A stretch of 64,000 nucleotides of DNA from a virus, in IMG/VR virus record IMGVR_UViG_3300037804_000367, positions 1 through 64,000 of that record. One strand, given 5' to 3'. A model generated the notes under the pieces. That model did no database searches and was not told the DNA's origin. It was given only the letters and a program-made list of their open reading frames with translations. This document shows, piece after piece, positions 31,606 to 63,991 of the stretch. The position numbers and the translations under genes are program-made. How positions within the stretch are numbered: position 1 is the first letter of the stretch; every line of letters starts with the position of its first letter.

Positions 31606-31611
31606 TTAAAG

Positions 31612-35041: not shown

Positions 35042-35112
35042 TGGCGGGTGCCGGACTCGAACCGACGTGCGAGGCTTATGAGACCCCTGAGTGACCACTA
35101 CTCTAACCCGCT
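35042..35112 (-). tRNA. tRNA-Met(CAT), initiator-like
   Basis: A1xC72 mismatch, G-rich anticodon stem, loop CTCATAA. Confidence 0.8.
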
Positions 35113-35335: not shown

Positions 35336-35459
35336 AGCCCACCACTGGAATCGAACCAGTTCCTAGAGTCGGGTTTGTTCCTTTGCGAAGCGCTTCACTC
35401 GGGACCTCCATCTAATATAACCTCAGCAAGTGAGTGCTCTACCAATGAGCTAAATGAGC
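35336..35459 (-). ncRNA. tRNA-like RNA (~124 nt, Thr-like body) with a ~55-nt insert
   Basis: GCTCATT/GGTGGGC, D-arm GCTC-ATTGGTA-GAGC, T-arm ACTGG-TTCGATT-CCAGT. Confidence 0.65.
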
Positions 35460-35474
35460 ATGTTGTTTGTAAAA

Positions 35475-35535
35475 TGGCGCTGGAACTAGGAGTGCATGCC
35501 TAGATTTACCATCCCTATCCTAAGGGACGTCCAAC
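35475..35535 (-). ncRNA. Minimal ~61-nt tRNA-like RNA ending CCA
   Basis: GTTGGA/TCCAGC acceptor-like stem, TCCC/GGGA hairpin, CTAGG/CCTAG T-like arm. Confidence 0.4.
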
Positions 35536-35541
35536 ATTTAG

Positions 35542-35615
35542 TATTCCAGACGGGGCTCGAACCCGCAATCTTCTGCGTGAAAGGCAGACGAGATGACCAA
35601 TTACTCCACTGGAAC
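35542..35615 (-). tRNA. tRNA-Glu(TTC)
   Basis: GTTCCAG/CTGGAAT, TCTGC-CTTTCAC-GCAGA. Confidence 0.9.
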
Positions 35616-36237: not shown

Positions 36238-37623
36238 TTACGAAGATTTCTTTTTGAAGTACGAAGATGTTTTTGTATCCCGTTCTAATCCAACAAACTG
36301 CAATACTATATTTAATGCATCTTGAATTGATTGATTCTTATTCTTCGTGATAGCCTTTCCAATATCTTTAACAGATCCTTTTTGATCACAAAAGCCGATA
36401 ACGAGTTTATCTTTATCTTTAATTTGTGCAATTGCTTCTTTGCATCCTCTTAGTCTTGCTATTGATCTATCTGTATCTGGATTATCATTTAACCATTCAA
36501 CAGTAGGTTCTAGTTTTAAAAACTGTTCCTTCTCTCTATTCTTTTGTCTTTTAATATCGCTCTTTGTGTCCATACCGAACATGCCCATCAATTCGTCAAC
36601 GTCATCATCATCATCATCTTCTAATGGGTTTGGAAAATCTTCATCTTCTTTGAACATGTCTTGAATATCTTGCTTCAGTATCTTATCAGCTACTTCATCT
36701 CTTAATGGGTGATCAAGTTCGTTGCGATCTTCTAAGTAGTCAATCTTCAATGCAAGCATTTCAACTACTTTAATAAAATAGTATTCAACTTTAAATAATA
36801 CTGAACGGGCGTCAATGTTATTAACAAGTGCCTCGTCCCAGCCAAGATGTACATGATATCTTTTATGTTTACGATAATATGATTTCTTTAACTTCACAAA
36901 TGCGTTGATTGTATTTGTATGAATCTGTTCACTATAATGCTTCACTATGTCATACGCAATGTCCATCATGTCATCAGCAACTACTGAAAGACTTTGTTTG
37001 ACATCATCTTGGTGTATTCTTGTTTCGGCTTCATCAAGATCTCTCTCAACTGAAAGCATCCGAGCAAGTCTTTTAATGAACATGTTTCTTCTTGATTCAG
37101 ATTCTAACCCATCACGCAATCTATTCTTTAAAAAGGGACTTAATTGTATTAACTCTTTCATCCAATCAGATGATATTATCTGTTGCTGAAGGTATTCGTA
37201 ACTAGCTAGTTTTAATTCTTCAATCATCTCTTCTGGAAAAATATCAATACTCTCATTTGAACTATGTTGGTCAACAGTAGTAGCATCAATCCACCTTGTA
37301 CTGTTATTGTCTACTGAAGAGTAAACGTCAAAGGGAAACCAGGCAACATACTTTGCTTTTAAATGCATGAGCACATCACCATCAGTCTCGGTGTTAATGT
37401 CTCCCTGTGACAATTTCTCAGCTGCAACGGTGATCTTCTCGTTTGATTGATTGGCAAGGAACACAGCGCCTTCGTTGTCTGTTGTATGTCTAAACCAATC
37501 ATGCTTGCCATAATTAGGATACAACAACTTAGCGATCTTAGAATCTAATCGCAACTGTCCACGAAGGGCAAGTGCCCAATCAAACGTACTTCTTTTATTC
37601 TGTTCCGCTAGTTGTTGTTTCAT
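36238..37623 (-). CDS. Large hypothetical protein (likely start 37623)
   Basis: ATG at 37623 coupled to the upstream stop at 37625. Helical, with an acidic stretch. Confidence 0.7.
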   Translation of the reverse strand: MKQQLAEQNKRSTFDWALALRGQLRLDSKIAKLLYPNYGKHDWFRHTTDNEGAVFLANQSNEKITVAAEKLSQGDINTETDGDVLMHLKAKYVAWFPFDVYSSVDNNSTRWIDATTVDQHSSNESIDIFPEEMIEELKLASYEYLQQQIISSDWMKELIQLSPFLKNRLRDGLESESRRNMFIKRLARMLSVERDLDEAETRIHQDDVKQSLSVVADDMMDIAYDIVKHYSEQIHTNTINAFVKLKKSYYRKHKRYHVHLGWDEALVNNIDARSVLFKVEYYFIKVVEMLALKIDYLEDRNELDHPLRDEVADKILKQDIQDMFKEDEDFPNPLEDDDDDDVDELMGMFGMDTKSDIKRQKNREKEQFLKLEPTVEWLNDNPDTDRSIARLRGCKEAIAQIKDKDKLVIGFCDQKGSVKDIGKAITKNKNQSIQDALNIVLQFVGLERDTKTSSYFKKKSS

Positions 37624-37624
37624 A

Positions 37625-39604
37625 TTAGGAAAGGTCACCAATGTATTGAAGATCTTCAAGTTTTCCACTTTCGATTGCATCAGATACCTTTTCGATATCC
37701 TTAAACCATTTAAGAACTTTTGAAATGATAACCTTCTTCTGCTTACCATCAACCTTTTCAAAGTCTGTGTAGCTTTTAGTGATACCAAGTCTTGATGATA
37801 TATCAAATATCTTTTTCAAAGCTGCTTGTTTTTTATCATCAGCATTACCGGACGTAGCTTTTGCAAGCTTGGCAAAGCTTTCAATGAAACCTAACAATTC
37901 AGAATCGTATTTGAAATCAAAGAATTTCTTTTCGAAAGGGTTTGCTATTAATTCTTTATGATACATGCTCATGAAATATTCAGCTAGTGTATTGAACACT
38001 GGACTAAAAGCTGAAGCATAAGTATCGAGATCAGAAGCTTTCATGTCTTGAGGACCACTATTAGCTCTTGCATCATATCTAGCACTAGCTTTTGAATTCG
38101 GAACTTTTGCTCTGTCTGCACCAAAGTATTTTTGGGTACGTGTTAAGTAAGCTATGGCTCTTGCTCTAGTAAGAGCTTCATCAACTAATTTTACTTCACC
38201 AGTTTCTGGGTCATATCTTTTTACTTTATAATAATCTCCACCATTGCTCCAAATCATTACATGGTCTTGTGTTTTATTGTCAACACCAATAACCAAGCGA
38301 CCACCTTCAGCGGACAAGAAAGATTTTACTTCTGCTTTGTTCTTTAAGTCGGTCCACTCGAGATCGTCCTTAATAACTGAACCACTCTTAGTATCAAATG
38401 ATTTATGAATAGCTGAAACGGTTTTAGAATCTAAACCTAGTGAACTTAATCCTGATGCTTCCGTAACAATTGATTCATCTAAAAGAACTTCTAAGTCTTC
38501 AAATGATACTTCGACTGGTTCTGACCAACCCTTGCCTTCAGGTTTCTTATCAGCTTCTTTGTATTGGCCAGTAAGAGTATTGTAGCAAACATTTGTCATT
38601 CCATTGATACGTCTTGCTGAATCAGATTCAACGACACCACCTGTATCAATTGATTCATCTTTCTCAAGTCTATCTAGTAATGATGTTAGTTGTCTCGGAC
38701 GAAGATCAAACTTATCACATAATTGTTCAAATGATAACTCATGTTTGAGATACTCATCATAAATAGATTGATCTGTTGCTTCGTCTTCTTGTAAGGAAGT
38801 AGATTCAAGTACACTTGCCTTTCCATCAGTGTAGTCCCCTTCAGGTACTTCAATGAGTGTCCATCTACTAGTAGTGTATTTGTTTAATACATCTACAGCA
38901 TTTTTTATATCTTTACCAGCTAATGTTTGGATATGGAATTTGACTTTGATGCCACCGTTTTCAAGTTCGGTGCCTTTGAATTCTGGGAGAGTATTTAATA
39001 TACGGTAATTCAATACACCGTCAAAAGAATGCCCAACACCAGACGTGCGACCATTTTTTACAGTGAACCCTCTACCAGTATTGTACATTGATTTTGTTTC
39101 AGGATTGTAAAAGTATGGTTGACGTCCATCACTTTTCAACATTTGTACTTTCTTACCAGGAGTGCCACCATCTTCTGATTCAAGATCGGATAGTTCAAAC
39201 CATCTGCGATTAGGACCAAAAGTAACTAAGTATCTTCCATCGTCACCCATTCTATTAACACGACCCTTACGACCCTTGCTCTTAATGAAAACCTTATCAC
39301 CTTTATTGAATTGTTCTGTTATTACATCTTCAGCAATTGGTTCATCGACATCGTCCATGTGCTTCTTACCTTCAAGAGCATCAAGGACTCCATCTACAAC
39401 AGTGTCAGCAGTAAAGTTATAAGTTTGTAAAGGTGTTTCACCTGCTACATCTTCTATTTGTAATTTGTACGAACCATCTTCTTTCTCTACTAGGTAAATC
39501 ATTTCGCCGTAGAAGAATGCCATCCACACTGCTTTCTCTCCTCCATAAGCTGTAGAGTTTTCAAACTTTAATTCTGTTAAAACTGTCTGTAGTTCATCAG
39601 TCAT
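37625..39604 (-). CDS. Large modular late protein, probable internal head protein with a KOW/SH3-like module
   Basis: TATAAATA at 39641. ITEQ, VLES, LQED, VVES, LDES and VTEA boundaries. FNKGDKV....G.V motif. Confidence 0.55.
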   Translation of the reverse strand: MTDELQTVLTELKFENSTAYGGEKAVWMAFFYGEMIYLVEKEDGSYKLQIEDVAGETPLQTYNFTADTVVDGVLDALEGKKHMDDVDEPIAEDVITEQFNKGDKVFIKSKGRKGRVNRMGDDGRYLVTFGPNRRWFELSDLESEDGGTPGKKVQMLKSDGRQPYFYNPETKSMYNTGRGFTVKNGRTSGVGHSFDGVLNYRILNTLPEFKGTELENGGIKVKFHIQTLAGKDIKNAVDVLNKYTTSRWTLIEVPEGDYTDGKASVLESTSLQEDEATDQSIYDEYLKHELSFEQLCDKFDLRPRQLTSLLDRLEKDESIDTGGVVESDSARRINGMTNVCYNTLTGQYKEADKKPEGKGWSEPVEVSFEDLEVLLDESIVTEASGLSSLGLDSKTVSAIHKSFDTKSGSVIKDDLEWTDLKNKAEVKSFLSAEGGRLVIGVDNKTQDHVMIWSNGGDYYKVKRYDPETGEVKLVDEALTRARAIAYLTRTQKYFGADRAKVPNSKASARYDARANSGPQDMKASDLDTYASAFSPVFNTLAEYFMSMYHKELIANPFEKKFFDFKYDSELLGFIESFAKLAKATSGNADDKKQAALKKIFDISSRLGITKSYTDFEKVDGKQKKVIISKVLKWFKDIEKVSDAIESGKLEDLQYIGDLS

Positions 39605-39653
39605 TATAATATCCCGTTGTGTTAAATTTAGCTATGTAGTTATTTATAGAATG

Positions 39654-40067
39654 TTACAATGAATCTACGTACAGTTCTAATAGAGATATTTGATTTTTAT
39701 GAACTACCTTTGCTGCCTCTTCAATGTCAAAATATCTTCCGTCTTGATTCTCAGGTAGACCTTTTCTATATCCATCAGCAATGATATTTGAACTTATATA
39801 TTTCTCAGTGCCATCGCCTTCGTAAATGAAAGCATTAATCTTCTTACCTTGCTTTACGTCTCCACTACCTTGAAGATAAACTAATCGATCAGGATGGTCA
39901 ATAGTAAGTCCAGTTTCTTCTTCAAATTCTCTGATAGCAGCTTGCTTTATATCTTCACCTTGTTCCACTCCGCCCTTTGGGATTCCCCAACCGTCACTAC
40001 CAGTGGGATTGATATAAAATATTTTATTCTCATGTCTAAGAATGATTCCTGCTGTTTGCCTTTGCAT
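39654..40067 (-). CDS. Nudix hydrolase
   Basis: WGIPKGGVEQGEDIKQAAIREFEEETG. Confidence 0.92.
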   Translation of the reverse strand: MQRQTAGIILRHENKIFYINPTGSDGWGIPKGGVEQGEDIKQAAIREFEEETGLTIDHPDRLVYLQGSGDVKQGKKINAFIYEGDGTEKYISSNIIADGYRKGLPENQDGRYFDIEEAAKVVHKNQISLLELYVDSL

Positions 40068-46980: not shown

Positions 46981-48249
46981 TTATAGATAGATACCTTGGT
47001 GAGCATAAATGCCAACCTTCTGAAGTCTTTGTCCGTCACAAATCTCTTTAAGCAATTGAACAATGTTTGTAAACTGTTTAAGACGATTAAACTTGTCAAT
47101 CGTAATCGCTTTCGTGATAGTATCGATAGCTTCCTTAGAGGTCTGTTTACGAAGGTCTGACTTCATGAATACAATTTTAAAGATCTCTAGGCTGTCTGAT
47201 GACTGAACTAACATATTACTTCTCCGGTTGATTAAATCTTATCTTACTAATATTAATATACACCCTCAAGTAGATAAGTCAACTTCATTTGACCAATATG
47301 TGTCGTAATAGTTCATGATAGATGTTTCTTCATTTCAAATGCTAGATAATGATTATCAAAATCTTCTTGTGTGGAAAGAACAAGCATCTGTTTAATTATT
47401 AGTTCTTGTAACCCGCTTCTGAATCTAAACAACTCGCATTTGTTGGTCGTATTCTCCCATCCGACACATATCAATTTAAATAATTCATTGTCCCAATTGC
47501 TAGTTGTAACATAAATGGCCATTGTTCCATTTGACCAATATGTTTTGTTAAAGTTCATCATTGATGTTTGCTCGGTTCTATTTTAAAAACCAAAATATAA
47601 TCATCGCGTACCACGTTACATCAAGAAGCTTTCCAAATGTAGACTGAGCTACTGCGCGTCCGAACCAACCACACACTCTCATGTAAGAGTTTCTAACACC
47701 TAGTACGATACCATAACCAATTATTAATGATAGTAGAATTAGATTAATCATTTTTTATCTCCATTAATTGTTGCGTTGTTATTGTTCGGGAAACAAATTC
47801 ACATTTAACACCAACTGCTCTCATTTGTTCGACAGTCATCTTATCATGTTTATAACGTTTGATTTCTTTATTGTTAGTCAGGTCGTAAATGTAGTATGAT
47901 TTAAATGATAGCTTATTTGGAATTTTTAGACATTTAACTATTTTACCATCAATAAAGTATTCAATTTTTGATGTTGGAAATGGGGTAGCAAATCCATTAG
48001 GGGTTGAGTTGTTATCCATTTTTATTCACCCCAAGCACTTTTAATGTTTAGCATTCTAACAGCCATCTTTGCAAACTGACTATTGGCTCCGTCGTGCTTG
48101 TAACCAATACCTATAAGCAGAGCTACATCTTCTGTTTCTGCAATCATACTCAGTTCCTTTCCATCAACCACTGGCTTGAAGTAATTTATAACATCTAAAG
48201 ATGGAATATTATTTGCACCTGTGTTCTGATATTGTTTAACTGTAATCAT
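46981..48249 (-). other. Small early hypothetical CDS (46981-47214, 47313-47561 ending MKKHLS, ~57-aa membrane ORF 47577-47750, 47744-48019, 48022-48249)
   Basis: Coupled ORFs with RBS. Confidence 0.55.
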
Positions 48250-48527
48250 TTTTTGTACTCCTGGTTGTGTAAATGTTTACTCATCTGTTTTGTTAGTATG
48301 AATTGTTGAGCTGTTAGTTTATCAATTGTTCGCCAATGGCCTGGAATGTCATAGCTGACATGTTGCCATCCTAATATTGACAACCACTTATAATTAGTAT
48401 CCCCTTTGCTTGCAAACAATACAAAGTTTTTGTCATCGGAATAGTTTGTCAAGAAGAACTTGTTCATTGTGTCAACACATAATTTCTCTTTGACATCATT
48501 CATTTTAACTACAACCCTTTTCGCCAT
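48246..48527 (-). CDS. Hypothetical protein with an MSKHL motif near the C-terminus (likely start MAKRVV)
   Basis: TAATG coupling to the HNH stop region. Start estimated. Confidence 0.5.
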   Translation of the reverse strand: MAKRVVVKMNDVKEKLCVDTMNKFFLTNYSDDKNFVLFASKGDTNYKWLSILGWQHVSYDIPGHWRTIDKLTAQQFILTKQMSKHLHNQEYKK

Positions 48528-48909
48528 TACACACTGTACACATGGTCTGCATGTTGCTAATGTTATTTGAACCACCATTACTCTTAGCCAGTATGTGATC
48601 TTTAGTCATGAGAACTTCATTACCATTTGAGTCCATACCGTACAGATTGATATGGTAACCTTTTTCAGTATAGTTTTTTTCAAGTGCTAAGAACTTACCT
48701 TTAGCTGAACACGCTACGCAATCAACTCCTTTTTCTTTAAAAGTTAATAACCGTAATGAAGACATGTTAATAGTTTCTCCATTAAGTTCAATATTTACTC
48801 TGTTTTTACTAGAAGTTTTGTTAGTAGCAAACTTTAAAATAGATAAATCTTCAAGTATGGAGTGACGGAAATACGTTGGTCTAGTTTTCTTTGTTGATTT
48901 CTTTTTCAT
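48505..48909 (-). CDS. HNH endonuclease domain protein
   Basis: CVAC, MTKDHILAKSNGG.N...N.QTMC..CN..KG. Confidence 0.85.
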   Translation of the reverse strand: MKKKSTKKTRPTYFRHSILEDLSILKFATNKTSSKNRVNIELNGETINMSSLRLLTFKEKGVDCVACSAKGKFLALEKNYTEKGYHINLYGMDSNGNEVLMTKDHILAKSNGGSNNISNMQTMCTVCNGEKGCS

Positions 48910-48910
48910 T

Positions 48911-49291
48911 TTACATTGCTCTCAGTACAGAGGACACAGGGAGCTTGAATGATTTACCAGTGGCAACTTCAATAGCCATTACTGGATAACGTTTTGCTCT
49001 TGTGTTCCAACCACTGACCTTGAACTTCTTTGATTGTAAAGTTATGGTTGAATTAAGAAGAGACTTTTTGAGTCCGTGTCTTTCAGCATAGAAGTTCCAA
49101 GCCTCAACTTCTTTTGAATCAGCTACTGTACCATTTGCTTTGACGTCGAGGAACTCAACCTTCATTGAGAATTGTTCTTTATTATAAGAGGCGCGACCAG
49201 TTTTGAATTTAACACTATGTTTCTTTTCAATTTTCTTCATAGCAGCTTCCATGTCTTTGCGAATTGCATCAATCTTTGAAGTAGTAATCAT
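48911..49291 (-). CDS. Hypothetical early protein
   Basis: First gene after the promoter at 49353. Confidence 0.65.
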   Translation of the reverse strand: MITTSKIDAIRKDMEAAMKKIEKKHSVKFKTGRASYNKEQFSMKVEFLDVKANGTVADSKEVEAWNFYAERHGLKKSLLNSTITLQSKKFKVSGWNTRAKRYPVMAIEVATGKSFKLPVSSVLRAM

Positions 49292-49366
49292 ATTTGTGTC
49301 TCTCTTTTAATTTATTTTCTTACCTATTCTAATATAAGCCCTTAACAGGATAAGTCAACAACAAAG

Positions 49367-51276
49367 TTAAACTAAATGCTTACTCATTTCAATATAAAGT
49401 AACACTTCGCTTGATGGGTCGTCAATATATTGAATAGCTTGACCATTTTGTTGCACGGACGCTAATTGAACTTCTCGAGAAGGGTCTTTTATATATTCAA
49501 TAGCGTGTCCATTTTGTTGTACAGCAGCAATTTGGACTTCTCGAGAAGGGTCTGTAATACATATAATAGCGTATCCATTTTCCTGCATAGCCACGAGTTG
49601 AACTTTTTGAGAAGGCTCTTTAATATATTGAATAGTGTGTCCATCTTGTTGCACAGCAGCTAGTTGGATTTCGAAAGATGGATTGTCAATATATTGAATT
49701 GTGTATTCGTCTTGTTGTACAGCTGCTAGTTGAATATCTTCACTAGGATTTTTAATAAATCTAATATCATATCCATCTAGTTGCACTTTCTGTAAGTCGG
49801 TCATGATAAATGTTCACTCATTTTAATAAAAAGTAACACTTCTTTACATGGATTGTCAATATATTGAATAGTGTATACATTTTGTTGTACAGCAGCAAGT
49901 TGAATTTCAATTGATGGATTGTTTATGTAGGTTATAGCATTTCCATATTGTTGTACAGCAGCAAGTTGAATTTCAATTGATGGATTGTCAATGAATCGAA
50001 TAACATACCCCTCTTGTTGTACAGCAGCAAGTTGAACTTCTCGAGAAGGGTCTTTAATATATTGAATAACATACCCCTCTTGTTGTACAGCAGCAAGTTG
50101 AACTTCTCGAGAAGGGTCTTTAATATATTGAATAGCATATCCACTTTGTTGTACTTTCTGTAAGTCGGTCATGATAAATGTTCACTCATTTTAATAAAAA
50201 GTAACACTTCTTGAGAAGGGTCTTTTATACATTCAATAGCATATTCACTGTGTTGTACAGCGGCTAGTTGAATTTCAATTGAGGGATTGTTAATAAATTC
50301 AATATTATATCCATCTTGTTGCACAGCAGCTAGTTGGACTTCTCGAGATGGATTGTCAATGTATTGAATAGCATATCCATCTTGTTGTACTTTTTGTAAA
50401 TCAGTCATGATAAATGTTTACTCATTTTAATATAAAGTAAAACTTCGCTTGATGGATTGTTTATGTAGTTAATAGCATTTCCATATTGTTGTACAGCAGT
50501 TAGTTGGACTTCACGAGACGGATTGTTAATATATTCAATATTATATCCATCTTGTTGCACAGCAGATAGTTGAATTTCGATAGATGGATCTTTAATATAT
50601 AAAATAGCATATCCATTTTGCTGTACTTTTTGTAAGTCAGTCATAATATATGCTCACTCATTTTACAATGTAGCTTTACAACTTCAGATGGATTGTCAAT
50701 ATAATTAATAGTGTATACATTTTGTTGTACAGCGGCAAGTTGAATTTCACCTGATGGATTGTCTATGTAGTTAATAGCATATCCTCCTTGTTGAACAGCA
50801 GCTATTTGAATCGCTTCGCTTGGATCTTTAATATATTGAATGGCATAACTATTTTGCTGAACTGCGGCTAGTTGAATCTCTTTACTAGGATTGTTAATAT
50901 ATTTAATAGCATATCCACTTTGTTGTGCAGCAGCTAATTGAATCTCTTCAGACGGATTGTTAATATATTCAATTGAGTTTCCATCTTGGTGTACAGCTGC
51001 TAGTTGAATTACTTCACTAGGATTTTTAATAAATTGAATTGCATATCCATGTTGTTGAACAGCTACCAGTTGAATTAATTCAGATGGATTATCAATGTCT
51101 TGAATTGCATAACCATCTTGTTGTACAGCAGCTAATTGAACTTCTTCACTTGGATCTTTAATATATTGAATTGTAATTCCCTTTTGTCGTACAGCAGCTA
51201 GTGGGACTTCGATAGACGGATCTTTAATATCTCGAATAGCATATCCATTTTGCTGTACTTTTTGTAAGTCGGTCAT
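49367..51276 (-). repeat. Five tandem paralogous CDS built of 22-aa DUF4116-like repeats (49367-49804, 49801-50172, 50169-50408, 50405-50644, 50641-51276)
   Basis: Unit VQQDGYAIQYIDNPSREVQLAA. All start MTDLQKVQ and end MS[K/E]H[L/I]. ATGA overlaps. Confidence 0.9.
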
Positions 51277-51287
51277 TGTGTCCTCTT

Positions 51288-52131
51288 TTATAATTCGACA
51301 CTACTGTTTGCTACATGTTGCTTTATTCTTTTAGCTAGGCCTTTGCCACCAGCGTCTACTTCTTGTAAGATGTTTTGAACAAGTGATTCCATAAACATAG
51401 TTTGTTCTCTTTCTAACTCTAACTCTCTATACTTGCGCGTAGCTAATTCTTGTTGTGCCATTCTTTCATTGGCCATAAACGATATACACTCTTGTGTACT
51501 GATATAATCAATGTCTGTTTTGAATTCAAACTGTAACTCTTGTTGTAATAAAACTTTAGTTGCAAACTCGGTCATGTTAATATCTCCAGTGTTTAATTTA
51601 ACTTTACTTCTTTCTAAATTTAGTAATTATTCTTACATGCAAGCATTGGATATTATATCCGCCTGCATAGATTGCTTCGACACTCATGACAAATTTGTCA
51701 TTGACTAGAAACTCAAAGCAGAATTGAGACTCAACTGTCTTTACAAATGTATCAATTGCTTCGCCGTCTAGTTTCTTTAGAGCTTTTGCTTCAAGTCCCT
51801 TTGCACAATTGTACCACTTCTTGTTGAATACTTTTTCGACATGCTCAATCTGGTAATCTTCTCTACAAAAGATATAATCTTGGTCGGCACGAGCAACGTT
51901 TGCATATTTCCACTCAAGTGAACACTGACTAACCATTTGATCTCTTTTAGAACGAGGCACAGGACGACAACCAGTTATACCAAACTTATCAAGCTTCTCT
52001 GCATTCCAAAGCTCATCGAGTTGATTCATCTTAGCTCTTGCGTTTGCATAAAACTCAAGCTTCTTTTTCTTTTGAATTTCAAAGTGTGGCTTGATTGCTA
52101 GTTTGATTTGGTCAAGTGCTGTCATAATCAT
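51288..52131 (-). other. Two early hypothetical CDS (51288-51575, 51604-52131)
   Basis: Follow the promoter at 52187. Confidence 0.6.
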
Positions 52132-52213
52132 CTTCCTTTTACATTTTCTTTCTTACCTATATTAATATACACTCACAACTGCAATTAGTCAAGCTGTTTT
52201 ATACAGTTTATAC

Positions 52214-52247
52214 AAAAAAAGATCCAATTAAATTAATAATTGGATCT
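52214..52247 (-). terminator. Intrinsic terminator
   Basis: AGATCCAATTA..TAATTGGATCT with a T-tract on the minus strand. Confidence 0.7.
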
Positions 52248-52278
52248 AGTATCTCCAGGTAAGAAGAAAATATGTTAT

Positions 52279-52904
52279 CTAAATGTTAATCTGTCTACAT
52301 GCCTTATCAAAATCTGCTTGCAATTGTTCTAGAGTAGGCCAATTTTCTCTGGCTAGATGTTTCCTCATATGTTGTTCAAGTATTTGTATTTCAAAAATCT
52401 TTTTTGATAGTTGTATATCTGTTATGTCTTGTTCATTTGATTGTAAAAAAGTTGATAAGTGAAAATATTCCCAATAGGAATGTTTTTCATTGTATCGTTC
52501 TACTTCCAAACTTTTTAAATCGCGTGTACGAATGTAAAGGATATCGTGTAAGTAGTTAGAGCTAATCCTCATAAAGTAAAACATAATTAGTCCAAGTGTT
52601 TTGACATCGCTTTGTTTAACTCATAATGTTCCATGTCTTCTTTTTGCTTATCAGTTAGAGAGTTGTTTACTTTTACACAATACAATTCAACTGAGTTTGG
52701 TCTCATGTTATCATTTAAGTGTCCCACCCCATCTCTATTTTTCATTAAGCAATAAGGAATTTCAAACAGAGCCATCTTTGGTTTGCCTTGTTGTGTATAT
52801 TCATAACCAGTAAAGATTCCAATTCTCATTCCGTATCCTTTATCGCTACTCGGGATAGCAACAATGTCACCTTTTTCAATTGTATTTCCTAACATGTCTG
52901 TCAT
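52279..52904 (-). other. Two hypothetical CDS carrying the MxKHL motif (52279-52584, 52587-52904)
   Basis: LEQHMRKHL, NKAMSKHLD. The second has an SH3-like D.LGN.IEKGD.V start. Confidence 0.65.
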
Positions 52905-52920
52905 AAGTTTGCCTTTTAAT

Positions 52921-54385
52921 TTAAATGTTCGTGTTTAGATATTGTCGCATTTTATTTAATGTTTGATAGTGTTCGCGCTTAACAAAATCATATTTTACAT
53001 CGCCAAGACCATTGCCCTTTAAGAACAAATCAAATACTTCAGTGGACATTTTAGTTTGGTGATTGTGAGTGTCGTAGTCGAACAACTTTATTTCATTGTT
53101 CTTCTCATAGAACATATAGAATGATACAACACCGTTACATGTCTTCATTATTAAATCATTAGCTGGATATTTCATTATACTAAATGCTCGCTCATTGCTT
53201 TGTAAGTTATCATCTGTTCTTTAGTAACAAAATCATATTTGGTTCCTTGAAACCCTTCTAGGAATGATTTGAATAGATTCCTTGATGGTTGTGTACTTAT
53301 TTCAGCGGTTCCATAATAGTATAACATTATCCAATCACATTTTGGACCTAGATCTTTAATATTATAAAAACTTATTTTAGATCCTTTGGTTTTCATTATA
53401 ATATTTGTTCGGTCAATCATTTTAAACCATCTTTGTTAAATGCTTTCTCATTTTGGAATATGTATTTATTTGGTCTTCAGTAATGTAATCATACTTCTCT
53501 ACTTTAGTACCTTTTAAGTTTGTTTGAAATTGATCAGCTGTTAGTTTGATTCTGCTCATTGGACCATTAGCAGCACGTATTTCAAACAGTTCGATGTCGG
53601 TAGTTTCTTTGGTCCACACTTGAAAGAATGAAACAATGTTTGTTTTGTAATGTGTTACCATTATGAAAGTTCTTTTGCCCATGTTAAACTTCCTTATCTA
53701 AATGTTCGTTCATTTTCTTTAATGTTTTCATTTGTGTTTCAGAAACGTATTCAAACTTTACTCCATTCAATCCTCTAAGCAATGCTTGGAACACATGTGG
53801 CGTTAGTTTAGTATGTTCGTCAGGTGGTCTTCCAAACTCATATAACAATACAGACTGATTTGGTTTACCAGCTAGTACAGAATAGAATCTTATTTTGTTA
53901 CCTTCCGTTTCCATAATGATTTCAAGATCGTTCATTTGTGATCGTCTCTGAATACTAACTGATAGTTTACGAATTCGAATAACAATTTAGACTTTGCATA
54001 TAGAATAGCACAAGGCATATCTTTCTTATCATGTGACTCAGCTGCTATCACAAGTCTTTCAAGAGCGGTTGTTAGTTCTTTGATTCGTTCGTCCTTTGTT
54101 TCCTTTGGACACGGTAGGTTTTCTTGAGCCATTATGTTGTTACCTTGTTAAATGCTCTTGCATCTTTTGATAAGTTGCTACCCACTCTTCAGTAACCCAG
54201 TCATACTTTATTCCTGGTTTACCTTTTAGGAAATTATCAAACATGTTTCTTGAGGGATGTAAATGTAATTGCGGAGATCCAAACATAAACATTTTTACTC
54301 TTCCCATTTTTGAATCGTAGTCTTCTATTGTAAAGAAGTCTATCTTTTCGTTTTGAGTTCTCTGTATAATGTTTGTTTGTTTCAT
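52921..54385 (-). repeat. Array of five ~82-aa paralogs (52921-53175, 53175-53420, 53422-53682, 53684-53935, 54140-54385) with one unrelated ORF (53932-54132)
   Basis: Shared I[M/Q].T...[I/V].F[Y/F] ... F...L.G..G.KYD.VT.E....KM.EHL pattern. Confidence 0.85.
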
Positions 54386-54387
54386 TT

Positions 54388-54767
54388 CTAAAACTTTCCT
54401 TTTATTTGTTCGCCTTTGTAAGTAACATTATGGGGCGCCCAACAACATGAACGATTATTGATATAAGTTTTTACTCTAACCCATTCAAATGGAAAATCAT
54501 TTTTTACTTCCTCAACTCTTCCTAAACCATCCGAACAAATAACTTCCATTCCTAATACAAGATCTTCGAGTTTCATATTTTACCTTTTTTGATCTTTTTG
54601 TAAACTACGTCTTTACCATCTTTTCGATTATCACTAGTACAATGAAAATCAGGATCTGTTAAACATGAACTTTCGTAATCACATCTTTCACAAATAGCAC
54701 CTCCTAGTTCAGGGTAGCCATCACTGATTGCTTCAAAGCCATTAGGTGCTTCGTCTTTATCAATCAT
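54388..54767 (-). other. Two small hypothetical CDS (54388-54576, 54573-54767)
   Basis: Coupled ORFs. The second has C..C...C..C motifs. Confidence 0.55.
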
Positions 54768-54843
54768 TGTTAGTTCCTCTTTTTACATTTTTTTGCCACT
54801 AACCAAATTTCATTATTTTAAAAACATTTCAACAATTGTACTT

Positions 54844-55188
54844 TTATAATAAATGTTTTTTCATTTTTTGTTCTAAAAAGTAAGAGTTTAATGCTGGGTT
54901 CCAAATGTGTTTGTGATTTGGACAATATTTTGGTAAGTATTTTCTACATGATAATACAAATGTTTTTGTATCAAACCACTTTTCGAAATGCTCACTACAG
55001 AACATTATCAGTAATTTACATTCGATTGATGACATTGTCATGTTTTGTGGGTCAAACCATTTATCAAAATGCTCATGACAGTTTTGTATTAGTAAAGGAT
55101 AATGAGACCAATTAAATTTGTCCTTGTCAAACCATTGATCAAAATGCCAATTGTGTTTCTTTAACCACTCTCTAGTATATTGTATTTT
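54844..55188 (-). CDS. HFDKWF-repeat protein with MKKHL tail (paralog of 63620-63991), likely start MKIQYT
   Basis: HFDQWFD, HFDKWFD and HFEKWFD repeats. Confidence 0.75.
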   Translation of the reverse strand, partial: KIQYTREWLKKHNWHFDQWFDKDKFNWSHYPLLIQNCHEHFDKWFDPQNMTMSSIECKLLIMFCSEHFEKWFDTKTFVLSCRKYLPKYCPNHKHIWNPALNSYFLEQKMKKHLL

Positions 55189-55192
55189 CATT

Positions 55193-58100
55193 TTAATCCA
55201 CAAAATATTTTTTCATTTTTTGTTCAAGAGTTTGTATTTGTACTTGTTTGTTCATTTCGCTTTGTGTAATCTCGATATCTTTTTTATGCATTCCGACAGC
55301 AACTAAAGGACTCCAAGATTTTTTTACCCATTCTTTTTGTTCCAAATTCCACTTGTAAATTGTATTTGGAGATTGTAACACAAACAAACTTATTTGTTTA
55401 TTTGTATGAGTTCGTTTCCAATATTTAAATTCAATTGCTGTCATATTACTATCTACCATTCCATTTCATGCCATTCGGCCCCAGTAATTTTCCTAAGCTC
55501 ATCATGAGTGGTTGAGTACTCCCACGCATTGTCGCCTCTTGTCTGACCATCTTCTGCTTTATTGTATCCGTCTTGAAAAGACTCAAGTACTAGGTTCATC
55601 AACGATATAGATTTCTTTCTTAGAAATGACTTTTCATTACTTTCATAATTTAGTTTGGCATTGAGATCTTCAATCGTTTTTGTTAGATCCTTTATGCAGT
55701 TTTGGTACTGTGCTTCCGTTTCGGAAAACTTCTGTAATTTACTCATTGTTTGTTTCTCTTTAACATTCCTGGCCACATGATCATATACAATACAGCAATT
55801 ATTGTCCAAGCTATTATTCTTATATAAAGTTGTTCACCAGAGTTATGTTTTGGACGATAGGCAAACAATCTATCAAACAGTAAAACAATTAATCCTATTA
55901 ACATGTACACTAGTACAATAATTGCTACAATAATTAAAATGCTCATTCACTTTCCTTGTTTAGATGCTTTGTCATTTTTGTTGGACGTCCATGTCATCGT
56001 ATAGTCCAGGAACATTAAATGGAATGTCTTTTGTAAACGGAAGAGTTTCTCTTATTTTACTTTCTAACAATTTGAGTTCTTTTAGTGATACAAACTTATC
56101 AGCGGTTATGATTTCAAAAATGTCCATTAACTGCTCTCTACCTTTAAACGAGTCGCCACTTATAAAACTATCATACAATTTAAAAGCAGATGATTTATAG
56201 TTTGGTTCATTATTAAATTTAGATTCTTTATCCCCTAAATTGATAAGAGTAATTAGTAATACTACACTAACTATTGATATACAAACTTTTGCAATTGTCG
56301 AGTCTGAAAATTTCATTATTTAGTTTCCTTTAATTTTACGATCTCATGAGCAGCTTCCCAAATCTTTAAATAATTATCAATATCAGAGTATTCAGAAATG
56401 ATTCCATGCTTCTGTAAAACAATAATTACTTGTTGTGCATCTTTTGTGTCTTGAGTCATTTTGTTAACCACTTTGCTTGTTTATAATTATTACATCTCTT
56501 TGCAACCTTTACCCAAGCCGTTAAGCAATCTTGCCAATCGAATGGTTCTACTTGACTGGTTGCATGACAGCTACAACATTCTAACATATATTTGTCTGGA
56601 AAGGTTCCCCAAGCTATTCGTTGTTTAACATACAGTTGATTGTGTCCTTTACAAAATGGACACGGATAGGGATTTTCATGATCCTCAGTTGTCCCTATCA
56701 TTTCAAAATCTTTCATTTAAGTGGCTTATATAATATTTTGTTTGTTCGACATCTGCACTTATTAAGAACCTGAGTTGAATTATAAAATCCTCTATTCTTC
56801 CTTGAAGCAAAGGTTGTAGATCTTCAAACTTCTTTCCATCAAACTCTCCGTCTATTAGATGAAATTTGTTATCTATAAAAGCAGCGAAGACCATAACTAA
56901 ATGAGCATTAAAAATACAATCTATAGTTTCTTTGTTATATTTTAAATGTACAGCTGGTAATTCTAAACCATAAATAGCTGCTTCTATTATTAAATTTGGA
57001 TTACATTGTTTACGATTATCTTTTTTATAGTCGATATCTAGTTGATAAGTTCCACACTTTATCTTTTTTATTAAAGAATTAACCGAAGTAAAATCTTTAG
57101 ATATTCTTATTCGTTCCATTTTGTTTCCTTGTTTTGTTTTGAAACGCGATCATTGAATAAATCAGCATCTTGATAAATCATTTCATTGATCAATACGATA
57201 GCCGCATTCAAATCTTCTATAGCAACCTTTGCTTGATAAAGAGCATTCTGCTTTCTATCTTTTAGCGCTCTGAGTACTTCAAGTTCGCTTTTATAGATAA
57301 TTGTGTAATGACTATTTTTGTTTATCGTGTTTTTGATAGGTGGAAAATTTTTTTGATCTTTATCTGTTGAATTAACCATTTGAATAACAATTAAGTCTTT
57401 GATATGTTCAACGACTTTGAATTTGTCAATGATATCAGATGATCCTCTGAACATGTAGATAAACTCATCCATTACTTTTTTAGTCCTTCCATCAAAAAGA
57501 TAATACGGTCTTTCTTTTCAATGATTTCATTTTGGATGGTGTACACTTCAAGTTCATCTCTGAGCTTAGCAGCAGATTTGTTTCTGTCAGCCTGCCACTC
57601 GAGTTGTTCCTTTTCGCCCATTAGATAAGCAGCACCAGGCCAAAGATTTTCATCTTGAAGCTGAGCGATTGTTTCTTCTACTAAAAATTTGATAGTCATG
57701 TTATACTTCCAATACTTTAAAAGTGTTTAATTCAATACCACGGCCGTTGACTTTTTCAACAACATCACTCATCCATTCATGATCGGCAAATTTTTTAAAT
57801 TGATCTACCCAAACAAAGTAAGCTTCTTCGCTAGCTTTTTCTGCATTTCGAGCTCTGACAAACACTTCGACTTTCATAGTCTTTGCATCTCTTTTTCTCT
57901 TTGCAATTCTGTCGGTATCAGGAGCGATTTCATAAACTGCTTGTACTTTGAATGTGGCCATGATTTTTTCCTTATTAATTTATCTTTCTTACCTATTATA
58001 GTATAAGCCCTTAAACAAATAAGTCAACTTCAAAGTAACTTTATTTTGGTAGTTTTGATTCACATTGTAGACAACGGAAGCATCTTCCCTTTTGGCTCTC

Positions 58101-59311
58101 TATACAGAAACCTGGATTTGGTCTGAATTGTTCAAGAGGCTTTATCGTGTGACAAATGTAACAGTTCTTTTCGTCTGGTTTGTTCATGTTAAGTGTTTTC
58201 TCATCTTTCGTTCAAGCAACCGTTCGTTTAATAATCGTATACCGTTTTGCTCACTGCCAACTTCTGGATAGCTTAATTGAGTTCTACTATATTGTCCCCT
58301 ACTCCATTTTCCATTTTTATAGAATTCTGTTTTGGGATTTGGAAATTGAGTATTAACTTTAAAAAGTGTTACTCCTGATAAGTGATAAGTGGTCATCTTA
58401 ATGTCCTATCCAATAGTAGTCGCCACATGAAACTCTTTGTTGGTTTGTATCAGCAGCAACTTTATCTAACAACTCTTGAGAGGAATTTGAACTATGAAAC
58501 AGCTCTCCGTTCTTCAACATAATGTGACGGTGTTTACTGAATATGCTACCAGTTTTTAATTCGTATTCATTTCCGCCTTTTGTGTACTTCCATAACATAA
58601 TGATTACCTCGATTGTTGTTCGTTTATTAAACCTTCCCAATATGAAATCTGTTTATCTATTCCTCTCAGCTGACATCCAACATAATGATCTCCGTCAATA
58701 CTAGCTTGAACGTTTGTGATGTTGCAATGTATGCAATGAGGGTAGTACACTGTGTCGTCCCAACAATTATCGTGTTTGATAATTAACTTGTTAAGCATGT
58801 TGTTTAATCTAGTTAATGTTGGGACGCAATTATCTTTCATTTTCAATTCCTTTAATCTAATACAAAGTATGCTACAACCATTGCAAGTATGTTACACCAT
58901 GCTAACAATATACCAATGTAAATTAAATATTGCATTTTATCTTTTCACAGGGTCTTGGAATTTGTACACTAATGTGAAGTCAACATTTCCATAGAAGTCT
59001 CTCTTGAACTTCTTTTCAACTGTAAAATGATTATTGACTTTCTTTGCATCTGTTGACGAGTACACTGTGTCGTCACCTTTAACCTTCCATGATACATAGT
59101 CATTAGATCTCAAAACTTGTTCAATGGCTATTGGTTCATTTGGTTCTTTACTTTCATAAGTTATTTCACATGGAATAAACCAGAAGGCTACTACTTGTAA
59201 CATTATTCCAATTACTATTAAAAAAGGATCAAAATCATTCTTTATCCCAAAAATAATTATCGTAATTCCTATTACACTAAATACTATCATTATCAATGCT
59301 ATTACTACCAT
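55193..59311 (-). other. Run of small hypothetical early CDS (55193, 55453, 55743, 55972, 56456, 56703, 57107, 57472, 57701, 58184, 58398, 58604, 58937)
   Basis: Coupled ORFs. Several have single TM segments. 56456-56716 has a CPFC..C..C Zn ribbon (Lar-like). 55193 and 58184 carry the C-terminal motif. Confidence 0.6.
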
Positions 59312-59340
59312 GTTTACTACCTCTTTGTTTTTATTAATTT

Positions 59341-59500
59341 AAAAAGAAAAGGCTTTCCACCTTTATGTCGGGTTTGCCCTCTGCGGTTCCGAGGTCGAAC
59401 TATTAAGCTGATTACAGCACCATTACTGGTAAGGTAGCCACCGAACTATTAAACTGCAGTCTTGACCACAAGGGAATACGGGCCACAGTTCTCATACGTC
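59341..59500 (-). ncRNA. Candidate structured RNA (~160 nt)
   Basis: GC-rich, ORF-free, TTAATAGTTCG twice, ends GGCAAACCC...AAAGCC then a U-tract. Confidence 0.4.
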
Positions 59501-59502
59501 AT

Positions 59503-62500
59503 TTAATATCGTTTTAAGATTGAATCAAATACAAATTTTGGTAAAGGGATTCGATTTCGATTGTCATTGTAATATTGACCTTCACCTTTCTCTCCAGTAC
59601 TTTCATACCAATCAACTCTATAAGATCCTTCATCAGTTTTTTCAATTACTTTAAAAATTGTTTCTGGAATAGTTTCATCAGTGCCAATCAAAGTCTCGTG
59701 AGGGTTTAACCAATAGGTACCTGGTTCCATTTGTGTCTTACCGTGAGGGAAGTCTTTCAAAATTAAGCTCCTTTTTTAAAGTAAACAGCATTGATTCTGG
59801 TTTCGGTTTCATGCCAAATGATTCCGTCAATAAAGTTCCATTGTTCAATCCAAACCTTCTCAGTTGGGTCATTAGCTAATTTGATAAGAGAATTGATCTT
59901 ACGAGAAACAGCTTTGTCGCTGACTTCATCTTCTGTGATTTTATATCCACGATCTATGCTTTGCTGTTCAACTTCACTAGACTTGTATTTGTAATTTCCA
60001 TTACATCCGCACATGCAACCTAGATTCCCACTATAAGAACTATGGATAGTAGATTTTAATTCGTTGATCATTTCCTGGCTTGCTTCAATTTTGACAGCTT
60101 CTTTCATTTTCAATTCCTTTTATTTTCTTACCTATTATACTATACGCCCTTAAATAGATAAGTCAACATGAAACGTAAATTAATCTTTGTAAAGTTTAGT
60201 AACAGAAGTGTCCGCATATACTATTTTTTGAGGACTCGTTACTCTGAGATCTTCGCCTAAAAGTTTGTACACTAATTGGTGGTTATGGCCACCACCCCAA
60301 TTTTGCTCAGATTCTGTATCTACTGTAATACCATGTTTTAGTTGAAGATCTTTTAGTTCTTTCTTAAATGCATCTAGGCGGGTTTTATATTCGCCTCTTA
60401 CTTGAGATAATATTTTCATTTTACAGACATCCAGTTATAACTGCTGTTTCATATGAACGATCAGACTTTTTGTGTTCTTGTGTTGGATTGTTCTTTCTTT
60501 CTTGTGCACACATTTCATAGATTGCATTTTCTTCGCGAATCTCTTGCTCGAGTTCTTCCTGTGTCAGCTCTATATCGAATTTCCACAACATCCACTGTTT
60601 ATAAACTTTACTGCTAGCAGAAGGCATTGGCGATGCATAGAATTTTAAATTTAAGTATTGTCTTTTTAAGAATTTTATCATCATCTGTTTCCTTTTAATG
60701 TTTATCTTTTTTACCTGTTCTAATATACACCCTGAACTAGATAAGTCAACATCAAAAGGTAATTATTTATCCAAATGTTTTCTCATTTGTTTAAAAAGTT
60801 TCTGTTCCTCGTGCCAATCATCATACTTCTGTTTTGTCGAAAGACAAATATCTTTCTTTTTCATTGACTTCTTCACCCAGTCCTTTCCATAGTGTATAAA
60901 TGTTCTCAGTTCTGTTTTAAAATAGAACTGATCTTTTTCAAACTTTTCACATTTACAAATCATGTAATTTTTACCACCCCACTTTACCCTGAAGTATTTA
61001 CCTATCCATTTTTTATTCCCACCATACTTTTTCATCGATAATTGCTGAATAAATTTTGCATAAACTTTTGTTGATCTTCAGACCCTTCCCAACAAGCTTC
61101 ACATCTCATATGCTTATTTTGAATCAATGCATCATTACATTTGATACAAATTTCCTTAGTGGGTTTTGCGGATTTAACTTTCATGGTGACATCACGATCG
61201 TCATCAAAGGTGCTACATGATGACCACGCGACAGTATTGATACTGCCTTTTTTAGCTAAGTCTTTTTTATCTCTACACACCACTCTTACTTTCTGAGTGA
61301 ATGTAAACTCGACATCATATACTTTGTATTCATCTTTTTTACTCATTTTTAATTTCCTTTAATCTATTTTTCATGAAGTAGAGTATTTAATTTAAACTGC
61401 ATCTAGTGCCTTCTTCATTTTCGGATCATCCCAACCTGGATTATCGTCTATGTATTTTACCATCACAAAATTAAGCTTCTTCTCATCGTGCTCTTCTTGT
61501 GTACATGACACATATTGCATTACAAAATCTTTCAATGAAAGTGTAATCATATTGTTGTTCATTCCTTGAAATGTAATACAAGTAGTGTTTTCATTTCCGT
61601 CGAAGTAGAAAGTTTTTACAACGTTTACGATTGAAATATATTGATACATCTTAGTTGAAAACCTTGTTTGATCTTCAATCGACTTCCAGTATTTTTGTGA
61701 AATATCCATGTTGTTCCTAGTTTAAATAATGAGCCATCTTTTTATCAAGTACAAACCTGTCAAATTGTTCCTTTGTTATTTCATAAAATGATTTATGTTT
61801 TACGAGTGACATGAACCACTTAACTCCCATTGACAGTGATAGCATATCAGGAGTCTGTATGAATACAGAAGTGCTAGTTATTTTATGAATAAAAATACAA
61901 TCATGAAACGTGGTTGAATTAAAATACTTGTTTTTGTATTTTTTATTAAGGTGTTTTATTCGTAACGCTTTTGATTTTCTTTTTTGTGTTTTAGATTTCA
62001 TTACAAGTGCTTTTTCATTTCTCGTTCTAATTTAAATTCTTGTATTTCTGTTTTACTTATTTTACAATCATGTGGGTGTTCTCCAAATCGATCAGACAAA
62101 TTAGCATGCCCAGACCAGACCTGTCCTTTTGTAAACAACTCAATGCGTCCGTCTTCGAATTGTCGCATTAGAAACTTACTTTGTGGATTGTGAAATGTTC
62201 TGAAAAAGTAAATCATTTTGTTTTAAATTTTACTTTACATTTCTTTGCTTCGGGAATATATAGATCATCATCGGACAGTATACTCATGGTATCTAACTCT
62301 CCATCACACCATTCAATAGCTAAAAAGATATCATCTATCTTTTTATAAGTGTGAAAATATAGAGACGGTTTAGGATCATCTCGTTCGCCCATTGGCCATT
62401 CATATGTTTTGTTTACTTTAAGCACTTTTAAAATCCTCGTGTAGACCTGCTAATCCAATTTTAACAGAATGTAAATGGTTTTTGATTAGAGAGCAAACAT

Positions 62501-63623
62501 AGCCAGTTTGATCAATAGGTTTTTTGGGAATCATTTCAGGTTGGTTTATACGTTTGGCCATCCATGTCATAACTTCATGAGTGCATTCGTTCATTACCTT
62601 AAACGCAATTTTGTCACTGACTTCCTGTTCGATCAATGCTAGTGCAACTTGCTTTCCGATTATATAAATAGGTGAACAGTCATTTGTATTAAAACCAGGT
62701 TTAAAATGATCAGCTAATGCCTTCTCGATTTTATTCTCTAACCGTTTGATTTTTTTCTTTTCCAACATTCTCTGATGATTTCTGATGTTCTCTTTTTTGG
62801 AACTCATATTAATCGTCCTGTTATTTTTTACCTATTCTAATATACACCCTTAACTAGATAAGTCAACTACAAATCAAATGTTTTTTCATCGTTTGTTCTA
62901 AAATGTGAGTGGTCACTTCTGCCTTTTTTACAATAGTGCATTGTTTAAGTATTGATTTGTCAGCTGACCATTTAATAACCCACTGCAAGGTTTGTTCGTT
63001 TAAGCTAAAGATATTTTTATGTTCTGTTCTTAAATATCGTATTTCATTCTCAACTACAAGGCTACCACTTGCGGTAGTACCATACAATCTTCTTTTGCGC
63101 TTATAATATTTCATGACAAGTGTTCCTTCATTTTACGATCTAATATATACTGATCATACTTGAGTTTTGAAATTTCCTTTATTTGATTATATTCCAAATT
63201 AGTATGAATAAATTCTGCTGAATCGCCATAGCTATTAGGTATAGTGAAAGGACTTTCAAAATAAAACGTGTTATTATTATAACCAGTACATTGATAACAT
63301 GGGTCACCGTGATAATAAAACATCTGAAAGAATTTACCAATAAGTAGTTTACTTTTATTGTCAATTGTATCTTGATGAGATTTCATTTTGATAAAGGTCT
63401 TTGCTTGGTTGTAAAATTGTTTAGTTGTAGGCTTGTACAATTTTTCGAAATCTCGAACAGATTCTACAAACACAAATCCATTACAACATTTTAAAGTAAC
63501 CCACTCGTGTAAAGCATTTTCATCATGGTCCCAATTAGTATCATATTGCTCTAATGTTACTGCGACACAAACATCGTGGTCATGAGAGGTCCAATATGAT
63601 TTTAACAAATTATTATAGTTCAT
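59503..63623 (-). other. Run of small hypothetical early CDS (59503, 59763, 60180, 60421, 60763, 61032, 61392, 61717, 62001, 62213, 62418, 62863, 63111)
   Basis: Coupled ORFs under the early promoters at 60161, 60744 and 62861. 60763, 61717, 62001, 62863 and 63111 carry the C-terminal motif. Confidence 0.6.
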
Positions 63624-63991
63624 ATTAAATGCTCACTCATCTTTTCTTCTAATTGCTGTTCAATAATTTGTTGCTTGGAATGATCGAATCTATTTTCATC
63701 ATACCATTTGTCTATGTGCTGTAGACAGTGCCTCTGAAGGTAACCACCAAATTGCAACACTTTTGCACCTGGTCTTATATTCCATTTGTATGACAAGTAT
63801 TCAGATGCTAGTTCACCGAACCTCAAACCATTCCAATCGAAAGTGTCACTATTAAACCATTTATCAAAATGATCACTGCAATGAATACACAACATACTCA
63901 CTGAAGTTAATGGGAATGTTTGTTCAGAGTACCACTCGTCAAAGTGACGAGCATTAGCTGAGAACCATTCATTTGTGTATTCAATTTTCAT
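63620..63991 (-). CDS. HFDKWF-repeat protein with MSEHL tail
   Basis: HFDEWY, HFDKWF and HIDKWY repeats. Confidence 0.75.
   Translation of the reverse strand: MKIEYTNEWFSANARHFDEWYSEQTFPLTSVSMLCIHCSDHFDKWFNSDTFDWNGLRFGELASEYLSYKWNIRPGAKVLQFGGYLQRHCLQHIDKWYDENRFDHSKQQIIEQQLEEKMSEHLI

Follow-up and report, generated by a model that had tools for sequence, protein, structure and literature searches.

A C-terminal helical peptide tag shared by about 40 small, structurally unrelated proteins of an uncultured marine huge phage

Small genes of an uncultured marine huge phage encode proteins with unrelated bodies that end in one and the same short peptide, M-x-[K/E]-H-[L/I], which we refer to as the tag. 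We analyzed this element in a 64,000-nucleotide stretch of the phage genome (hereafter the window), which comprises positions 1-64,000, the first half, of the 128,786-bp IMG/VR record IMGVR_UViG_3300037804_000367, and followed it over the whole record and an adjoining contig. The tag exists, is under selection as a peptide and is carried by structurally unrelated bodies. It makes up the final two to three turns of an amphipathic helix at the C terminus and is portable at the protein level. An earlier note on this DNA, made from the letters alone, had listed tagged C termini in genes between 47313 and 63991. All of the listed peptides were found again when re-read from the sequence, and the series proved to reach beyond these bounds: it continues to ~78 kb, and outlying cases at 90.9 kb and on the adjoining contig bring the total to ~40 genes.

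The tag is enriched at protein C termini

A six-frame scan of the whole 128,786-bp contig returned 28 matches to M-x-[K/E]-H-[L/I], 27 of them on the minus strand, which is the coding strand. Among called open reading frames (ORFs), this strict motif fell within the last 12 residues 24 times, against 0.05 expected (maximum 1) from 200 per-protein shuffles. Internal positions showed no excess, with 1 observed match and 0.76 expected. The motif thus exceeds both shuffled and internal-position controls, in line with the C-terminal tag that had been proposed. With a relaxed motif (H or Y at +3; L, I, M or F at +4), we counted 37 carriers at 47-97 kb, about one gene in three there, and no carrier on either side, where 58 genes lie at 0-40 kb and 51 at 100-128 kb. 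The adjoining contig contributes three to four further carriers, one of which is a 270-aa nucleotidyltransferase-like protein. The earlier statement that metabolic and replication genes lack the motif holds for nearly all of them, with this protein as the exception.

A profile hidden Markov model (HMM) of the tail, 18 columns wide and built from 35 training members, scored those members at 11.6-24 bits and its best non-terminal match at 6.7 bits. It added three ORF ends at 8.6-10.4 bits (77597, 61720 and 63994). The consensus reads hydrophobic(-4)-x-x-x-M-x-[K/E]-[H/Y]-[L/I/M/F], with mostly L at -4. Conservation extends past five residues to a second hydrophobic position at about -7/-8 and often to an [S/T]-x-x-[E/Q] helix cap 9-13 residues upstream, and the conserved stretch as a whole measures ~10-18 residues. 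In 20 of the 37 tags, a single residue separates the motif from the stop codon (10 of these without start-codon overlap); across all copies, as many as 8 residues, and once 24, follow the motif. About 40% of the copies carry E and not K at +2. K-M-S-K-H-L looks like the KMSKS signature of class I tRNA synthetases by coincidence only: there is no HIGH motif and no enzyme-sized body, and the context is helical.

The tag sits on unrelated bodies

We removed the tails from the carriers, grouped the remaining bodies by blastp and compared their profiles with hhalign. The tail-less carriers fell into three families and ~14 orphans. Family A (12 members) is built from HFDKWFD-type repeats of ~33 residues, family B (6 members) from 22-residue DUF4116 repeats (PF13475), and family C (5 members) comprises proteins of 81-86 residues. 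The gathering score of PF13475 (cutoff 24.9) was passed by the proteins encoded at 50641-51276, with 76.7 bits and 6 stretches, and at 90902-91576, with 32.7 bits. No link was detected by hhalign among families A, B, C and the orphans, the highest value being a 40% probability for one orphan pair.

Structure prediction with AlphaFold2 (AF2) gave two distinct folds. The family A model is an all-alpha repeat fold with a predicted local distance difference test score (pLDDT) of 94.5 and ends in a 17-residue helix. The family C model is a small SH3/Tudor-like beta-barrel followed by a short helix and a 14-residue C-terminal helix, with a pLDDT of 86. The tag occupies the distal part of the C-terminal helix in either model, and this helix is predicted with confidence (pLDDT 86-96) and runs on from the body without a break. 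Foldseek and VIA searches with the family A and C models returned no significant match among solved structures. Altogether, the three families, the ~14 orphans and the two predicted folds bear out the earlier view that the bodies are unrelated and are not one homologous family. An "aromatic beta-rich" group named in the same note could not be demonstrated as a family, and its proteins are orphans by profile comparison.

The tag is an add-on that a given body family may have or lack

Proteins with the same kind of body may carry the tag or do without it. A HFDKWFD-repeat protein from another viral contig (L005), 46% identical, has a C terminus without the tag. Foreign DUF4116 proteins (P0013 and P0029) have nearly the same repeats and match the repeat part of the tail profile, and they too end in other, tag-less C termini. 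Within the phage itself, the family A paralogue at 74407-74772 stops just before the tag position, and in the Atlas, proteins similar in structure to a family A member match its residues 1-130 of 140, with the tag excluded. The last helix of family A and B proteins is part body, part tag: its first half is body sequence, which in family B aligns with the PSxEV helix of the repeat, and tag-specific sequence is limited to the final ~10 residues. Because outside relatives of families A and B, as well as one internal paralogue, lack the tag, it is best described as an add-on, as the modular design suggested earlier would have it. As the far end of a helix, it has been grafted onto bodies of three or more independent types.

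Selection acts on the peptide

All tag copies are in frame with a long ORF. At the tag, His is encoded by CAT and CAC 21 and 10 times (regional background 60/40%), Lys by AAA and AAG 14 and 3 times, Leu by TTA, TTG, CTA and CTT, and Ser by both AGT/AGC and TCA. Apart from a weak excess of GAG, codon usage at the tag does not differ significantly from the regional background. The sequence 3' of the tag varies by carrier and may be an ATGA overlap with the next start (8/36), TAATG, a Shine-Dalgarno sequence plus a gap, or a promoter, and the next start codon lies anywhere from 17 nt inside the tagged gene to more than 50 nt beyond it. The mix of junction types resembles that of untagged neighbors. 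Since synonymous codons follow the background and both downstream context and start distance vary, selection acts on the peptide and not on a DNA site, as the earlier note had supposed.

Carriers lie behind host-type early promoters

A near-invariant promoter cassette of ~50 bp (TTGACTTATCTAGTTAAGGGTGTATATTA..ATAGGTAAGAAA, with TTGACT, a 16-base spacer and TATATT ahead of ATAGGTAAGAAA) is present in 15 copies on the contig, all on the minus strand; 10 of these are in the window, against 0.01 expected. The window copies span 3804-62866, and six are within the tagged region. A conserved copy of this sigma-70-like early promoter (TTGACT..N16..TATATT) lies at 47263-47282 on the minus strand, and further conserved copies on that strand are found at 49339-49358, 58008, 60147, 60730-60749 and 62847-62866. 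The cassette precedes both the replication and the small-gene clusters, and tagged genes on the adjoining contig stand behind the same promoter type. The cassette matches the sigma-70 consensus, which points to the host polymerase and hence to early expression; the carriers are accordingly likely to be early proteins. The confinement of the tag to small genes behind such promoters agrees with the small early proteins of the earlier note. The cassette also served as a signature of this phage and led to the adjoining contig.

Tagged genes of the window

All carrier genes in the window are on the minus strand. At the low end of the series are two orphans, one of 82 aa (47313-47561) ending in ..FEMKKHL-S (HMM 17.9 bits) and one of 110 aa (48246-48578; sequence, HMM), whose MSKHL had been listed as a C terminus and is present, with seven residues after it. 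Five DUF4116-repeat proteins of family B follow in tandem: a 145-aa protein (49367-49804, ..EMSKHL-V), a 123-aa protein (49801-50172, ..KMSEHL-S) and two of 79 aa (50169-50408, ..KMSEHL-S; 50405-50644, ..KMSKHL-S), all assigned by family grouping and HMM, and a 211-aa protein (50641-51276, ..KMSEHI-L) recognized by PF13475 (E=1e-21) and HMM. This tandem array (49367-51276) and its counterpart at L006:13110-15158 differ in length by ~139 bp between assemblies that are otherwise identical, and one gene of the array is not called in the European Nucleotide Archive (ENA) contig described below; the length difference reflects either copy-number variation or assembly collapse of the repeat.

Two further orphans lie beyond the array. 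The 101-aa protein at 52279-52584 (HMM 21.6 bits) contains ..LEQHMRKHL, which had also been read as a C terminus; the motif is there, at an internal position with 24 residues to the stop. The 105-aa protein at 52587-52904 ends in ..KAMSKHL-D, written with Ser TCA, His CAC and Leu TTG (sequence, HMM). The five members of family C come next. The AF2 model is of the 81-aa member at 53175-53420, which ends in ..KAMSEHL-V and whose tag is the C-terminal helix formed by residues 67-80. The other four were assigned by family grouping and HMM: an 84-aa protein with the variant KMRQYL plus 4 residues (52921-53175), an 86-aa protein with KMRKHL plus 4 residues (53422-53682), an 83-aa protein with KMNEHL plus 4 residues (53684-53935) and an 81-aa protein with KMQEHL plus 2 residues (54140-54385).

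Family A is represented by HFDKWFD-repeat proteins of 119 aa (54844-55203, ..QKMKKHL-L) and 123 aa (63620-63991, ..EKMSEHL-I), both assigned by family grouping and HMM. The tagged genes listed between these two all encode orphans. Five were identified by sequence and HMM: proteins of 70 aa (58184-58396, ..RKMRKHL-T), 90 aa (60763-61035, QMRKHL plus 2 residues, then an early promoter), 71 aa (62001-62216, whose last residues are exactly ..REMKKHL), 83 aa (62863-63114, TMKKHL plus 3 residues, with an early promoter overlapping the gene end) and 170 aa (63111-63623, ..RKMKEHL-S). Two variants were identified by HMM, an 88-aa protein with KMKKYF plus 2 residues (55193-55459) and a 94-aa protein with the shifted form ..DKKMAHYL-N (61717-62001; 9.3 bits).

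Other genes are found among the carriers. The interval 48505-49291, between tagged genes, encodes an HNH endonuclease of 134 aa and a protein of 126 aa with a Y4mA_C domain, and an untagged paralogue pair of 95 and 129 aa (51288-51575 and 62418-62807) is interspersed among them. On the adjoining contig, a large HNH endonuclease of 402 aa (L023:7166-8374) has tagged genes on both sides. The small-gene region also encodes, at contig 74841-75572 (L001:10841-11572), a protein of 243 aa whose N terminus bears a methylation motif like that of type IV pilins (PF07963, E=1.9e-9).

The source is an uncultured marine huge phage

The 128,786-bp contig has a G+C content of 34%, and its minus strand codes for nearly all genes. 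It carries 27 tRNA genes and encodes a ribonucleotide reductase, a DnaB-type helicase, an NAD-dependent ligase and a clamp loader of the T4 type, as well as a DHFR, a sigma factor and a trypsin-like peptidase. The tRNA genes are clustered at 28785-35615 of the window on the minus strand, and one of them (31787-31856) has an odd anticodon loop. Two peptidases are possible readers or processors of the tag: a transglutaminase-like cysteine peptidase, whose gene lies amid the tagged ones on the other strand (contig 78384-79157, plus strand; L001:14384-15157), and a trypsin-like (Trypsin_2) peptidase of 235 aa that has no PDZ domain (contig 115975-116682, minus strand; L003:11975-12682).

Among 50,697 phage records, the top match of the clamp loader, at 34% identity, was to the group of the Pseudomonas jumbo phage PA5oct, and megablast with 17-kb and 24-kb parts of the window matched none of these records. 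Identical (100%) genes were found on a 257,096-bp ENA contig (ERZ4200886 NODE_1) and in three other assemblies, and the sequencing runs that contain the stretch are all seawater metagenomes. The 90.8-kb record IMGVR_UViG_3300037804_000399 (loci L019-L023) has an end that shares an identical 127 bp with positions 128660-128786 of our contig, which identifies it as the neighboring piece of the same genome; the two IMG/VR records can be merged. This adjoining contig adds a DNA polymerase (G003 37122-39761, phrog_262, E=1e-166), a helicase, a dUTPase, a GroEL-like chaperonin (L023:823-2451, phrog_5725, E=1.6e-137) and very large proteins of up to 2225 aa, which are presumably structural. The source is an uncultured marine huge phage of ~257 kb or more, without a close relative in the collections searched.

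We further searched for relatives of the tag and of the phage. The family C profile recovered only the phage's own proteins from 5.8 billion proteins. A tail profile (A3) searched against 1.84 billion representatives returned the phage's own proteins, DUF4116 matches on columns specific to family B, and one spurious repeat translation. The same profile found no matches in PA5oct and two IMG/VR contigs, with 46 matches in the phage's own contig as a positive control. Queries with a 659-aa lineage-specific protein, the clamp loader and the early promoter against viral and metagenome contigs yielded one contig with a clamp loader of 34% identity and no tags, chance promoter matches, and the adjoining contig itself. 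In the literature on jumbo and huge phages we found no such tag, and no relevant C-terminal import signal of phage nuclei.

What the tag may do

The reading that we favor, at slightly less than an even chance, is that the conserved M/H/L face of the helix docks all carriers on one common partner, a choice of partner that includes loading into a compartment or capsid. The phage lineage has placed the tag on ~40 small proteins with host-type early promoters; among them are repeat (binding-type) proteins of two kinds, the members of a family with a small beta-barrel, and numerous orphans. With the spacing i, i+3, i+4 seen in LxxLL or PIP-type helical motifs, the M/H/L face may then dock these carriers on a single partner of phage or host origin, and variable early proteins could be handled as one class, being recruited, localized, loaded or removed together. 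Candidate phage-encoded readers are the GroEL-like chaperonin, the trypsin-like S1 peptidase, the transglutaminase-like cysteine peptidase, the sigma factor and the sliding clamp, whose gene was not located. The phage polymerase ends in ..FESSFLDV, which differs from the tag and makes the clamp a poor candidate. Only tentatively do we propose the more specific version, in which one dedicated receptor reads the tag as an address label (with the GroEL-like chaperonin, a phage peptidase and the capsid interior as candidates) and the ~40 proteins form one set that would make up a fifth to a third of the early-region genes.

Several points weigh against docking on a common partner. The partner is hypothetical, and we infer the docking itself; that the bodies bind host targets is likewise a supposition. 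Paralogy inflates the raw carrier counts, at least 17 independent body groups remaining. The tag lies within a confident, continuous helix (pLDDT 86-96) and could for that reason be mainly structural. No independent phage relative was found in which tag and reader might be seen to co-vary, and the other contigs with tagged genes are all 100% identical and offer no microdiversity. Finally, a tail of ~18 residues cannot reach significance in libraries of billions of proteins, and restriction of the tag to this lineage is therefore not proven. A predicted complex of a family C and a family A protein, modeled for tag-tag association, scored 0.00 without controls and speaks neither for nor against binding.

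A structural role without any common reader is the alternative that fares best, and we still consider it unlikely. Here the tag would stabilize small, fast-evolving proteins, either by capping the end of a helix or as a short helix for self-association, and would spread as new genes of the array arise by in-frame fusion to the 3' end of a neighboring gene. Its place in a long confident helix continuous with the body in both AF2 models fits such a role, as does the merging of the tag-specific residues with a first helix half that, in families A and B, belongs to the body (repeat-like PSxEV.. and ..W......Y.L), and the tight gene packing with frequent stop/start overlap would favor 3'-end capture. 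However, the same M, H and L recur on an all-alpha repeat, a beta-barrel and orphans, which would lack a common packing surface, and bodies A and B do exist without the tag, elsewhere and in one internal paralogue. Neutral hitch-hiking, moreover, would not retain these residues while synonymous sites drift.

Loading of the small proteins into the huge capsid for co-injection, or into another phage-built compartment, appears improbable. Short peptides on unrelated cargo load HK97-fold shells and microcompartments, some of them C-terminal amphipathic helices, and the size of the phage would suit such a scheme. Yet the carriers lie behind host-type early promoters together with replication genes and not in the structural module, and known loading peptides are attached through flexible linkers. 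We rate marginally lower the possibility that the tag is a degron or timer by which a host or phage protease (S1 or transglutaminase-like cysteine peptidase) clears early proteins at a stage switch. The near-terminal position with its strong preference for one following residue, the presence of peptidase genes on the contig and the early class of the carriers would agree with this, and the basic-then-hydrophobic end (K-M-K-K-H-L-x) of many copies resembles MuA-type ClpX signals. On the other hand, the frequent replacement of K by E at +2 and the longer extensions after the motif speak against a degron, and the tag is predicted to be an ordered helix, whereas known unfoldase degrons are disordered; those of the ssrA and MuA types are unstructured and lie at the extreme C terminus. 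The remaining alternative, that the signal lies in the nucleic acid and the peptide is a by-product, is very improbable and already largely refuted. Such a signal could serve ribosome binding or coupling to the next gene, act as a linker for recombination or mark a site of RNA processing. The motif does sit where a coupling element would, with many carriers overlapping the next start, but third codon positions vary like the background, Ser included, every copy is in frame, the distance to the next start varies, some copies are followed by a promoter, and the junctions resemble those of untagged genes.

Comparison with known systems

Huge phages carry hundreds of small genes of unknown function, and a handle on ~40 of them offers a single experimental entry point. 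With one peptide as bait, the partner could be revealed, and hence the pathway that is fed by much of the phage's dark matter. Should there be a reader, the tag would be a portable label that sends arbitrary proteins to the same place in infected cells.

Known systems resemble the tag in part. Poxvirus ankyrin-repeat PRANC/F-box-like proteins, and cellular F-box and SOCS-box adaptors, likewise place a constant C-terminal helical module on paralogous and non-paralogous proteins, several of them built from repeats, within one viral genome. PRANC, however, is a domain of ~50 residues with a Pfam model and Skp1 as its reader, whereas the tag measures only ~10-18 residues, belongs to a bacterial system and is also found on non-repeat bodies. 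When 10 tagged proteins were scanned against Pfam (E<=0.1), neither PRANC nor F-box was matched, and the analogy drawn in the earlier note does not hold at the level of the domain. Bacteria are not known to have SCF. The second analogy made there, with the ClpX-binding tail of SspB, captures a constant C-terminal peptide on a substrate-binding body. That tail is disordered, is attached by a long linker and has the consensus LRVVK, and the comparison breaks down at the structure: our tag differs in sequence and forms the ordered tip of a confidently predicted helix that runs on from the body.

Short address peptides on unrelated proteins are also known from the capsid targeting sequence of T4, from encapsulin cargo loading and from the encapsulation peptides of microcompartments. 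Encapsulin signals and some microcompartment signals are C-terminal like the tag, the microcompartment ones being amphipathic helices, but they sit on flexible linkers and have another consensus, and the tag is carried by early genes. The T4 sequence is N-terminal and is cleaved by the prohead protease, while the tag is C-terminal in all carriers. Clamp-binding C-terminal peptides (T4 gp43, gp33 and gp55 on gp45; the PIP box) share a near-terminal helical motif with hydrophobic residues at i, i+3 and i+4 on unrelated proteins; the tag carriers differ in that they are not DNA enzymes, and the polymerase of this phage does not end in M-x-K-H-L. The principle of a short address or docking peptide shared by unrelated proteins is thus already known. 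The present case differs in the sequence of the tag, in its position and structure as the ordered end of a helix, and in the class of its carriers, ~40 small early proteins.

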